Made by a program: the position numbers and the translations under genes. Below, one piece after another: positions 53,960-55,122 of a stretch of 64,000 nucleotides of DNA (its first letter is position 1; each line of letters opens with the position of its first letter). The notes under the pieces were generated by a model. The model was not told where the DNA came from, searched no databases, and saw nothing but the letters and a program-made list of their open reading frames with translations. This stretch comes from Dehalococcoidia bacterium (GTDB taxonomy: Bacteria > Chloroflexota > Dehalococcoidia > Bin125), in the NCBI GenBank assembly GCA_963663235.2, contig CAXXNO010000004.1, forward strand, positions 132,515 through 196,514, read 5' to 3'.

Positions 53960-54409
53960 ATGATCTGGCTGCTGCTCGGCCTGGAGATCCTTCTGGCGCT
54001 CGGCTTGCTGGCGTTGGCGTGGCGCGGGCGGCGGGCGACGGTGCACGGCATCTTGAGCGAAGAAGAGGCGCAGGCGGAAGCGTTTCTGGCGGCCACCGTG
54101 GAGCAGTTGCTGCGGGACCTGCAAGAGTCGGCGAACCGGACGACGCTGCGGCTCTCGACGCAGACGGAGGCGCTGGAAGCGCTGCTGCGCGAAGCCGACA
54201 GCCGCGTTGCCCCCGAACGTTCCTCGGCCCGGCGCACGCGGAAGAGAGCCCGCAAGGACGAGCCCCCGGCGGCGGCCACGCCCGCGGCGTGGACGCAGCA
54301 GGCGCGGACGCTGTCGGAGAGCGGGTTGGGCCCGCTGCAGATCGCGAAGGAGATGGGACGGGGCACGGAAGAGGTGCGTCTGGCGCTGGCGGGGGCATCG
54401 AAGGGTTAG
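53960..54409 (+). CDS. single-pass membrane protein with coiled-coil and C-terminal HTH-like tail (flagellar-operon-associated; DUF2802/DUF6115-like by recollection)
   Basis: MIWLLLGLEILLALGLLALAW TM, a helical middle region, a basic linker, and the tail LSESGLGPLQIAKEMGRGTEEVRLALA. Confidence 0.6.
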   Translation: MIWLLLGLEILLALGLLALAWRGRRATVHGILSEEEAQAEAFLAATVEQLLRDLQESANRTTLRLSTQTEALEALLREADSRVAPERSSARRTRKRARKDEPPAAATPAAWTQQARTLSESGLGPLQIAKEMGRGTEEVRLALAGASKG

Positions 54410-54411
54410 CG

Positions 54412-55122
54412 ATGCGGGGAAGAACCACCCAGGCGAAGGCTGCCGCGGCCGCGTTCTTGGCGGCGCTGTTGGCGGCGCTGTTCATTGTCGCGGCGGGCGG
54501 GACGGCGCCGAGCGGCGTGGCGCACGCGAACGGGGTGCCGCAGACGCTCCAGTTGCTGTATCTGGAGTCGATCTCGAACTGGGGGCCAACCGACGCGCAG
54601 GGGGATCTGGAGTTCTCGTTCTCAGAGGGCTACATGACGCTGGACGTCCGGGGCCTCCCCCGCCTTATTGGCCAGACCTATGAGGGCTGGTTCGTGCGCT
54701 CCGCGACCAACGAGGCGATCAGCACGGGGCCGTTCAACACCAGCGCCGACGGCAGCGCCCACTACGAGGCGACGCTGCCGAGCATTCGAGACTATTCGCT
54801 GGACCTGTTCGTGATCACCGTGGAAGTGCTGGAGGAGCGCGACGACTCGCCGGACCAGCGACGCTCGATCGCGGGGTACTTCTCGGTCATCGGGTCCGAC
54901 GCTGAAGAAGCGAGCGGGGGCGAAACCAGCGGCGCCGCGGCAGGGGCCGGGGGCGTCGGGGATGCCGCGAGCGACGGGCCGGCCAACCTTCCCGAAACCG
55001 GCGATTCGAGCGGGTTCGCCGGCAGCGCGCGGGGGTTGTTGATCATCGTGCTGGGAGGCTTGGTGATCCTGTGGGCCGTTGCGCGCACGCGGGCGCGCGT
55101 GCGGAAGGAGCGGCGGCCATGA
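54412..55122 (+). CDS. LPXTG cell-wall-anchored protein with anti-sigma-K RskA-like extracellular domain
   Basis: Signal peptide (AAFLAALLAALFIVAAGG). The RskA-C-like core reads GQTYEGWFVRSATNEAISTGPFNTSADGSAHYE...LFVITVE. The sorting signal is LPETG (54988-55002) plus hydrophobic LLIIVLGGLVILWAV plus RTRARVRKERRP. Its stop overlaps the flgF start (ATGA). Confidence 0.75.
   Translation: MRGRTTQAKAAAAAFLAALLAALFIVAAGGTAPSGVAHANGVPQTLQLLYLESISNWGPTDAQGDLEFSFSEGYMTLDVRGLPRLIGQTYEGWFVRSATNEAISTGPFNTSADGSAHYEATLPSIRDYSLDLFVITVEVLEERDDSPDQRRSIAGYFSVIGSDAEEASGGETSGAAAGAGGVGDAASDGPANLPETGDSSGFAGSARGLLIIVLGGLVILWAVARTRARVRKERRP

Follow-up and report, generated by a model that had tools for sequence, protein, structure and literature searches.

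The window analysed here, a 64,000-nucleotide stretch of a Dehalococcoidia genome (Chloroflexota; assembly GCA_963663235.2, contig CAXXNO010000004.1, positions 132,515 to 196,514 of the forward strand), carries two small genes, here called gene 1 and gene 2, which are packed between the flagellar sigma factor gene fliA and the rod gene flgF. Our analysis makes it very likely that gene 2 encodes a flagellum-linked substrate of a sortase. We also lean, with distinctly less confidence, towards a role for this protein as a structural anchor or collar that would secure the rod or basal body within the wall where P and L rings are missing. While the scaffold role is a proposal, comparative genomics documents the flagellar link and the sorting signal: gene 2 overlaps flgF, is gained and lost together with flagella and keeps an intact signal made of an LPxTG motif, a transmembrane helix and a basic tail, while a sortase gene with intact His, Cys and Arg follows fliD-fliS-fliT in related clusters. 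The features of gene 2, in window positions, are as follows.

54412..55122, + strand: gene 2, secreted LPxTG-tagged protein with an RskA_C/superoxide dismutase (SOD)-like barrel, 236 amino acids
54412..54528, + strand: predicted signal peptide, residues 1-39, with a cleavage site between AHA and NG (inferred from an AxA-like site heuristic)
54529..54891, + strand: folded domain, residues 40-160, a Cu/Zn-SOD-like beta-barrel without metal ligands and homolog of the RskA C-terminal domain (AlphaFold, structure and profile alignment)
54892..54987, + strand: flexible Gly/Ala/acidic linker, residues 161-192 (predicted local distance difference test score, pLDDT, below 50 at residues 171-188)
54988..55002, + strand: LPETG sortase motif (sequence and homolog alignment)
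55033..55119, + strand: C-terminal hydrophobic helix (about residues 208-224) and basic tail RTRARVRKERRP

Gene 2 encodes a predicted sortase substrate

A preliminary description of this DNA had placed gene 1 and gene 2 2 nucleotides apart and had reported an ATGA overlap between gene 2 and flgF. This layout was confirmed, with the gene 2 ATG at 54412 and its TGA (55120-55122) overlapping the flgF ATG at 55119, and all the motifs quoted at the time are present. Neither a sigma-70 promoter nor a terminator was found between 53500 and 57600.

Hydrophobic stretches occupy residues 6-37 and 200-228 of the gene 2 protein. Residues 1-39 resemble a signal peptide, with an AxA-like site before a conserved NG in 126 of 136 homologs and a median of 31 residues upstream of the mature start; by this heuristic the protein has the N-terminal secretion signal of a sortase substrate. 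Its C-terminus carries the LPxTG motif, hydrophobic helix and basic tail by which such substrates are recognised, set off from the folded domain by a linker whose median length in the family is 20 amino acids. The motif is invariant in 22/22 aligned homologs, and is found in 100/104 distinct homologs called in the fetched loci and in 104/109 full-length cluster representatives (109 of 150 listed, the 41 without both hydrophobic ends having been set aside). In this genome, LPxTG lies near the end of 8/95 proteins with a C-terminal hydrophobic helix and basic tail, versus 5/2232 others. As read from the sequence, the sorting signal of gene 2 is beyond chance; the TIGR01167 LPXTG model alone scores it below cut-off (13 versus 15.9 bits). 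The signal peptide and the LPETG, helix and basic tail pointed out in the preliminary description are thus borne out by homolog conservation. We infer that the gene 2 product is an LPxTG cell wall sorting substrate, predicted to be cleaved between T and G and linked to peptidoglycan.

In the six LPxTG proteins that this genome encodes besides gene 2, the motif always continues with an SG(S)G-type sequence. Apart from gene 2, the fetched loci yielded convincing LPxTG proteins in one family alone, f114, in the form of the LPNTG-tagged propellers described below.

Gene 2 occurs with flagella in Chloroflexota

In a sample of 401 Dehalococcoidia genomes, 37 carry gene 2 and 43 give flgG-family rod/hook matches; all 37 fall among the 43, and none of the 358 others carries the gene. 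In a phylum sample of the same size (401 genomes), gene 2 was found in 36, with flgG-family matches in 34 of these. Genome G555, which has gene 2 and no flgG match, has fliS; in G618, which gave neither flgG nor fliS matches, the homolog (L233 8986-9591) is not part of a flagellar locus. This last homolog, the sole one found off flagellar loci, reads LPSTA in place of LPxTG.

The position of the gene is conserved as well. Gene 2 stands directly before flgF in 30/30 loci, with fliA upstream in 29/30, and flgF or flgG follows within 1.2 kb in 63/64 GTDB loci (the miss being a contig end) and in 26/27 phylum loci, these three locus sets being partly overlapping. With identical proteins removed, 82/104 homologs reach into the flgF start, and another 14 lie no more than 60 nucleotides away. 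The linkage to flagellar genes, which the preliminary description had seen in this DNA, therefore holds in other genomes.

Searching more widely, we obtained 343 representatives at E<=0.001. A GTDB scan with two peptide patterns taken from Dehalococcoidia-type members gave 64 loci whose titles read Chloroflexota or 'bacterium', and a single one named Hyphomicrobiales. A plasmid collection held a homolog only in Thermomicrobium roseum, and a metagenome scan with a single gene 2 protein found no locus. Gene 2 appears to be an accessory flagellar gene specific to Chloroflexota that is gained and lost with flagella.

We considered a split gene 2 in Tepidiforma flava (NZ_CP115149.1) as a natural knockout and rejected it, since fliA, flgF and flgG are frameshifted there too; the four frameshifted genes in this record of a motile strain (L095, 8800-12100) are probably assembly errors.

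Two families without gene 2 have features of their own. In family f4, FlgF is about 90 residues longer (337-339 amino acids versus about 250; L097 6362-7375, L098 5597-6616). In family f114, an LPNTG-tagged YVTN beta-propeller protein is encoded at the edge of the flagellar cluster (L220 8589-9725, L221 3257-4351, L224 7260-8291), with a sortase 0.9-1.3 kb off in 2/3 loci and a predicted mature start that also lies between A and NG. It is possible that this propeller is a non-homologous replacement of gene 2.

A sortase gene often accompanies the flagellar cluster

Gene maps of related clusters show a sortase gene directly after fliD-fliS-fliT. We called a sortase linked when a gene map or coordinates placed it 0.3-1.0 kb downstream of fliS on the same strand. 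By this definition, 30 of the 37 Dehalococcoidia genomes with gene 2 have a linked sortase, the slot is empty in G000 (the genome of the window) and its relative G333, and five gave no clear call; among gene 2 genomes from other classes, the count is 20/33. In the RefSeq genome of T. roseum, the two arrangements read fliD-fliS-fliT-TRD_RS13845 (named 'sortase') and fliA-gene 1-TRD_RS09470 (named 'hypothetical protein')-flgF.

Residues H188, C252 and R261, which we take to be the catalytic His, Cys and Arg, are invariant in 10/10 linked sortases. Three linked sortases were tested against family models, and they score over the general TIGR01076 cut-off and below those for classes C, D, E, F and GN. 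In a 48-sortase tree, the 31 linked enzymes all belong to one group of 37 members (support 91/90), which also holds four of the five genes without a clear call, a sortase of G463 and a stand-alone sortase of G333.

In the Tepidiformaceae, flhA, gene 2 and the sortase also tend to occur together. Among 45 genomes of this family, all 23 with flhA have gene 2 and a sortase of the linked type, and 17 have none of the three; the five mixed cases are one fragmented genome with gene 2 and the sortase but no flhA, and four with the sortase only. In family f4, gene 2 and the linked sortase are both missing (4/4). Many clusters have a second gene labelled flgM-like by similarity after the sortase slot (G000:C4 205404-205682; L134 13985; L135 14034), besides the flgM after flgG.

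Dedicated sortase/substrate pairs are familiar from class B (SrtB-IsdC), the class C pilus sortases and the class D sporulation sortases. The present pair is like these in that an extra sortase, with His/Cys/Arg intact, is co-inherited with a pathway and an LPxTG-type substrate. It differs in that the pathway is the flagellum, sortase and substrate are encoded in different flagellar operons, and the substrate has no conserved pilin lysine.

Gene 2 shares its barrel with RskA and lacks an anti-sigma domain

Gene 2 scores 30.9 bits against Pfam RskA_C (PF10099; cut-off 29.4, E 3.6e-7), and 50/118 family members match this model at E<=0.01. Aligned by hhalign with eight true RskA proteins from these genomes, the gene 2 family reaches a probability of 97.8% (E 7.8e-13). 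The resemblance to the extracellular domain of RskA proposed in the preliminary description was therefore upheld by profile searches, which assign the domain to RskA_C and not to an unrelated family. In the ESM Atlas, the leads for the domain, at 0.83-0.84, are archaeal clusters with a 14-29% share of RskA_C.

The AlphaFold model has a pLDDT of about 90 or more over most of residues 40-160, with a helix beginning at residue 5. VIA-align superposes the barrel on 6flh, a loop-deleted SOD1, with Z 11.9, a root-mean-square deviation of 2.3 and 105 aligned residues. Foldseek against the PDB gave nothing at E<=0.001, the best rows being SODs at 4e-3, and a sequence profile search of solved structures gave one chance match (E 0.6). 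When one true RskA was modelled, it matched these SOD structures as well and, in addition, the anti-sigma domain of RslA (3hug_B), which has no counterpart in the gene 2 model. Prediction of a complex of three copies of the domain gave a score of 0.00 and a mark of 0.42, which weighs neither way.

These data dispose of several identities. No His, Cys or Lys is conserved among 151 aligned family sequences, and the mature chain of gene 2 has one His and no Lys; gene 2 is thus neither a SOD enzyme nor a pilin. It shares the barrel topology of Cu/Zn SOD but not the conserved His/Asp metal ligands or the disulfide. A sortase-assembled pilin was rejected as the pilin-motif Lys is missing and the three linked sortases tested score far below the class C cut-off, and membership of the FlgI P-ring family was rejected as the protein does not match PF02119.

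A true RskA was also rejected. According to the available text of PMC7509140, RskA inhibits its sigma factor through about 80 cytoplasmic N-terminal residues, and its C-terminal part modulates SigK activity. Gene 2 has the homologous extracellular barrel but no N-terminal cytoplasmic domain of about 80-90 residues to bind sigma ahead of the transmembrane helix; it differs further in its predicted cleavable signal peptide, its LPxTG anchor and its sigma-28 and rod-gene neighbours. These neighbours are fliA, gene 1 and flgF, with no extracytoplasmic function (ECF) sigma factor among them, whereas the true RskA genes of these genomes adjoin ECF-type sigma genes elsewhere. The name 'anti-sigma factor', given by NCBI to homologs such as WP_051913860.1 and suggested by NF052375 matches in 27/118 members, is thus wrong for gene 2, because there is no cytoplasmic domain.

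Longer fused forms of gene 2 were not found among 8000 candidates in what was a weak search. A 541-residue protein named FliA (P0125) holds the gene 2 domain at residues 310-524, which may reflect a fusion or read-through. Elsewhere in this genome, unlinked to flagella, G000:C4 718247-719287 encodes an LPSTG-tagged protein with a weak RskA_C-like match (E 0.0014) and an apparent internal duplication.

A model for a wall-linked flagellar anchor

Tepidiforma has flagella, a peptidoglycan layer of about 20 nm and an S-layer, and all but one of the class genomes in the same study are without flgH and flgI (PMC10284905). We found murD matches in 42/43 flagellated Dehalococcoidia genomes (38 over cut-off), FlgI (PF02119) in 0/5 genomes tested and the FlgJ rod-binding domain in 0/3. 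How rods cross Gram-positive or monoderm walls is stated to be unknown in a recent preprint, as far as its text is available (10.64898/2026.05.21.726928).

Sigma-28-like sites precede fliC in 10/63 cases and the flaG slot in 4/24, gene 2 in 1/102, flgF in 0/117 and the linked sortase itself in 0/35, which gives modest support to late expression of the sortase. As the substrate is encoded among early genes and the sortase gene ends the filament-cap operon, we propose a two-step scheme in which gene 2 would wait in the membrane and be locked to peptidoglycan later. Our model suggests that the gene 2 product would be produced together with the early basal-body and rod genes, leave the cytoplasm through Sec and stay tethered to the membrane by its C-terminal helix. 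There, the non-catalytic barrel would bind a putative periplasmic partner of the nascent motor, such as the rod, FliF, or MotB/FliL. The sortase at the end of the late operon, probably driven by sigma-28, would then cleave between T and G of the motif and link the mature protein of about 157 residues to peptidoglycan. A collar or anchor would thus be fixed where the rod crosses the wall, taking over part of the job of the missing P-ring. With one small barrel and a linker of 20 residues in the median, the mature protein is expected to lie within the wall and not beyond the S-layer.

The preliminary description had speculated about a wall-attached bushing or scaffold. This is the best-supported reading and is strengthened by the flagellum-linked sortase gene; contact with the motor is putative. 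A stricter version, in which gene 2 is a covalently wall-linked P-ring substitute, unrelated to FlgI, whose subunits, produced along with the rod, gather round it on their membrane tether before the late sortase crosslinks them to peptidoglycan, is in our view tentative and rather unlikely. The likeness to the bushing of the FlgI P-ring and FlgH L-ring concerns the proposed job alone, a Sec-exported support around the rod at the level of the wall; gene 2 differs in its fold and its predicted covalent wall anchor, and ring formation is only proposed here.

Several observations weigh against the anchor reading. On the side of distribution, 6/43 Dehalococcoidia genomes with rod/hook-gene matches have no gene 2: four are family f4, with full rod genes and fliA abutting the longer flgF, and the remaining two (G268 and G307) have only two partial, hook-like matches. 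In the phylum sample, 15/49 flgG-positive genomes lack gene 2, two of them (G435 and G604) unpublished. The genomes are related, so that the counts are not independent events. On the side of the sortase, 13/33 gene 2 genomes outside Dehalococcoidia have no findable fliS-adjacent sortase. The support for the sortase group is below the starred threshold, and the non-flagellar sortases in the tree were sampled through a profile of flagellar ones. A sortase is present in 62/63 genomes, including 20/20 non-flagellated members of the family to which this genome belongs; presence is therefore unspecific and it is position that counts. Since the linked sortase persists in four Tepidiformaceae that have neither gene 2 nor flhA, it may have other substrates. 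Sigma-28 sites were seen in only a minority of late operons. In the strain of the window, finally, the cluster is broken and its flagellum is probably non-functional, the sortase slot between fliT and the second flgM-like gene (G000:C4 205315-205404) is empty, as it is in G333, and the only two sortases are class-F-like, on another contig and outside the flagellar group.

Alternative explanations for gene 2

We weighed four other explanations. The one that survives best, although we think it improbable, is a wall-site marker or adaptor: the anchored barrel would mark a permissive pore, or recruit or restrain a peptidoglycan hydrolase, and would be no lasting part of the motor. Such a role would suit the co-translation of gene 2 with rod genes, the want of a FlgJ rod-binding domain in the three genomes tested and the question of rod crossing raised in the preprint cited above. 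No hydrolase gene was recognised beside gene 2, a weak counter-argument given that the maps used only the flagellar proteins of this genome as references, and the late position of the sortase would fit anchoring after rod assembly better.

An extracytoplasmic regulatory partner is a little less probable again. Here the barrel would sense an envelope cue and influence FlgM export and sigma-28 activity via the export gate or another membrane protein, gene 1 for instance. The preliminary description had proposed a sensing partner of the sigma-28/FlgM circuit. Homology to the extracellular domain of RskA, the SigK-modulating activity of that part of RskA (PMC7509140, in its available text), and a location adjoining fliA and near flgM speak for it. 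The proposal has nevertheless come out weaker, because the protein is without an anti-sigma domain in the cytoplasm and would, on sortase cleavage, lose its sole membrane anchor and be detached. Gene 1 is moreover absent from its slot in 21/104 loci, SwrB has almost no outside part according to the available text of 10.1101/2021.04.30.442225, and true RskA genes lie beside ECF sigma factors elsewhere.

About equally doubtful is a co-regulated surface protein, an adhesin or S-layer tether required with motility yet not in contact with the motor. As a rule, LPxTG proteins are surface factors; one of the six others in this genome has a weak RskA_C-like match, and family f114 has its different LPNTG beta-propeller and sortase at the cluster edge. 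Yet the small barrel and short linker would be too short to pass a wall of about 20 nm and an S-layer (dimensions from the available text of PMC10284905), and the stop/start overlap with flgF is kept in the 82 homologs counted above.

A true RskA-type anti-sigma factor for FliA, which the RskA_C score, the NF052375 matches and the NCBI names would favour, is almost certainly wrong, being already contradicted by the architecture of gene 2 and by FlgM being encoded two genes downstream.

Gene 1 resembles FipA and SwrB

53960..54409, + strand: gene 1, FipA/SwrB-like single-pass membrane protein, 149 amino acids (ATG at 53960, TAG ending at 54409)
54323..54382, + strand: gene 1 C-terminal motif G122-x15-E138-x2-L141 (alignment; counted spacing equal to FipA G110/E126/L129)

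Gene 1 has an N-terminal transmembrane segment (hydrophobic residues 1-23), a coiled region judged from sequence and alignment, a C-terminal motif and a position after fliA. It scores 18.7 bits against DUF6115 (cut-off 27), and in its family DUF6115 matches occur in 12/19 members and DUF2802 matches in 7/19 (E<=0.05, best about 2e-7), which supports the likeness to small proteins after fliA/sigD drawn in the preliminary description. The ESM Atlas places gene 1 at 0.90 to a DUF2802 cluster (15% of its members). Residues A129 and E138 are invariant in 19/19 aligned family members, and G122, E138 and L141 have the same spacing as G110, E126 and L129 of FipA in the available text of PMC11620751. 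SwrB is described as a single-pass protein with a cytoplasmic body, encoded after sigD (10.1101/2021.04.30.442225, available text).

Gene 1 thus resembles FipA (DUF2802) and SwrB in its transmembrane segment, coiled region, G-x15-E-x2-L motif and place after fliA/sigD in a cluster with flhF; it is itself below the Pfam cut-off, and SwrB is likened to it by description and not by sequence. By this analogy, gene 1 is probably an ordinary FipA/SwrB-like protein whose target, on the cytoplasmic face, would be FlhF or the export apparatus. The slot upstream of gene 2 holds a gene-1-like gene in 72/104 loci by pattern, with four more by eye, and fliA itself in the 21 loci mentioned above. Gene 1 also occurs without gene 2, in L218 and L219. 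Gene 1 and gene 2 are no obligate pair.

The flagellar cluster of this strain is broken

52639..53937, + strand: flhB::fliA in-frame fusion from a deletion (junction 53499-53505)
55119..55865, + strand: flgF (rod), start overlapping the gene 2 stop
55870..56649, + strand: flgG (distal rod; profile match)
56652..57499, + strand: flgM and flgN (profile match)

The preliminary description had reported a fliA remnant upstream of gene 1. The remnant is there, and we can add how it arose: a deletion specific to this strain has joined flhB in frame to the 3' half of fliA. Compared with the relative G333, about 5.1 kb is missing (flhA, flhF and two more genes), and flhA is not in this assembly, the genome being 92% complete. 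The junction at 53499-53505 has a 7-bp overlap, and one contig of run X1 extends across it. On this ground we rejected a pure assembly error, with the reservation that X1 could itself be the source sample. Runs X6 and X7 come from two other studies and have the region intact; their contigs break at 53499-53505 and continue upstream into different sequence, at least 3.2 kb in X6 and at least 3.7 kb in X7. We conclude that the deletion is real and confined to this strain, conspecific samples being intact.

The genome has two PF04203 sortase matches over cut-off, and murD is also over cut-off. The genome therefore has the sortase that the preliminary description's wall-anchoring idea called for, in the form of two genes, neither of them in the flagellar sortase group. 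G333, the closest flagellated relative, keeps a sortase of the flagellar group elsewhere in its genome, at a site whose neighbours are not syntenic with G000. With flhA deleted and the cognate sortase not in the assembly, the gene 2 module of this strain is probably idle.

Other irregularities were noted along the way. The flgK gene (57518-58925) is split by one extra base at 58228, which X6 and X7 lack, and fliG (G000:C4, about 207500-208320) was called at 267 amino acids versus 332 in G333, possibly another break. A small gene with two transmembrane segments (about 90-115 amino acids), which recurs just before fliA in other loci (L101 13754-14098, L097 5237-5515), is deleted in this strain, and it gave no NCBIfam match. 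On G000:C8, two identical-looking stretches (about 170000-172900 and 202800-205700) lie 32.9 kb apart and give identical matches, suggesting a duplication or assembly repeat.

Discussion

The preliminary description had not recognised a cell-wall-crosslinked protein encoded in a rod operon as a described component, and no such description emerged from the literature either. Among literature listings with the beginnings of abstracts, no sortase or LPxTG protein was described as a part of the flagellum, and the combination of Chloroflexota, flagellar and sortase returned one unrelated paper only. The word 'sortase' occurs 0 times in the available main text of PMC10284905, PMC13277936, PMC2615216 and the PBP1 preprint, with the caveat that supplementary tables or notes of the first two could list genes. 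PMC13277936, a 2026 census of flagellar families, likewise has no RskA in its available main text. The parts are known in kind, namely the RskA_C fold and the sortase/substrate pair; their flagellar use appears to be new.

Just how a rod passes through a monoderm wall and gains support there is still open, and gene 2 and the sortase of the filament-cap operon provide two concrete genes for this question. Cultured and motile strains of Tepidiforma, already imaged by cryo-electron tomography, carry the gene 2 family. A recurring database label, 'anti-sigma factor', would be corrected, the known flagellar families would gain one that is missing from the main text of the 2026 census, and dedicated sortases would extend beyond pili, iron uptake and sporulation. 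If the P-ring substitute proved true, this would be the first flagellum that needs a sortase for its assembly. Flagellated Chloroflexota usually carry gene 2, often together with the sortase, which suggests that the motor is fixed in a Gram-positive-type wall in a manner not described so far.

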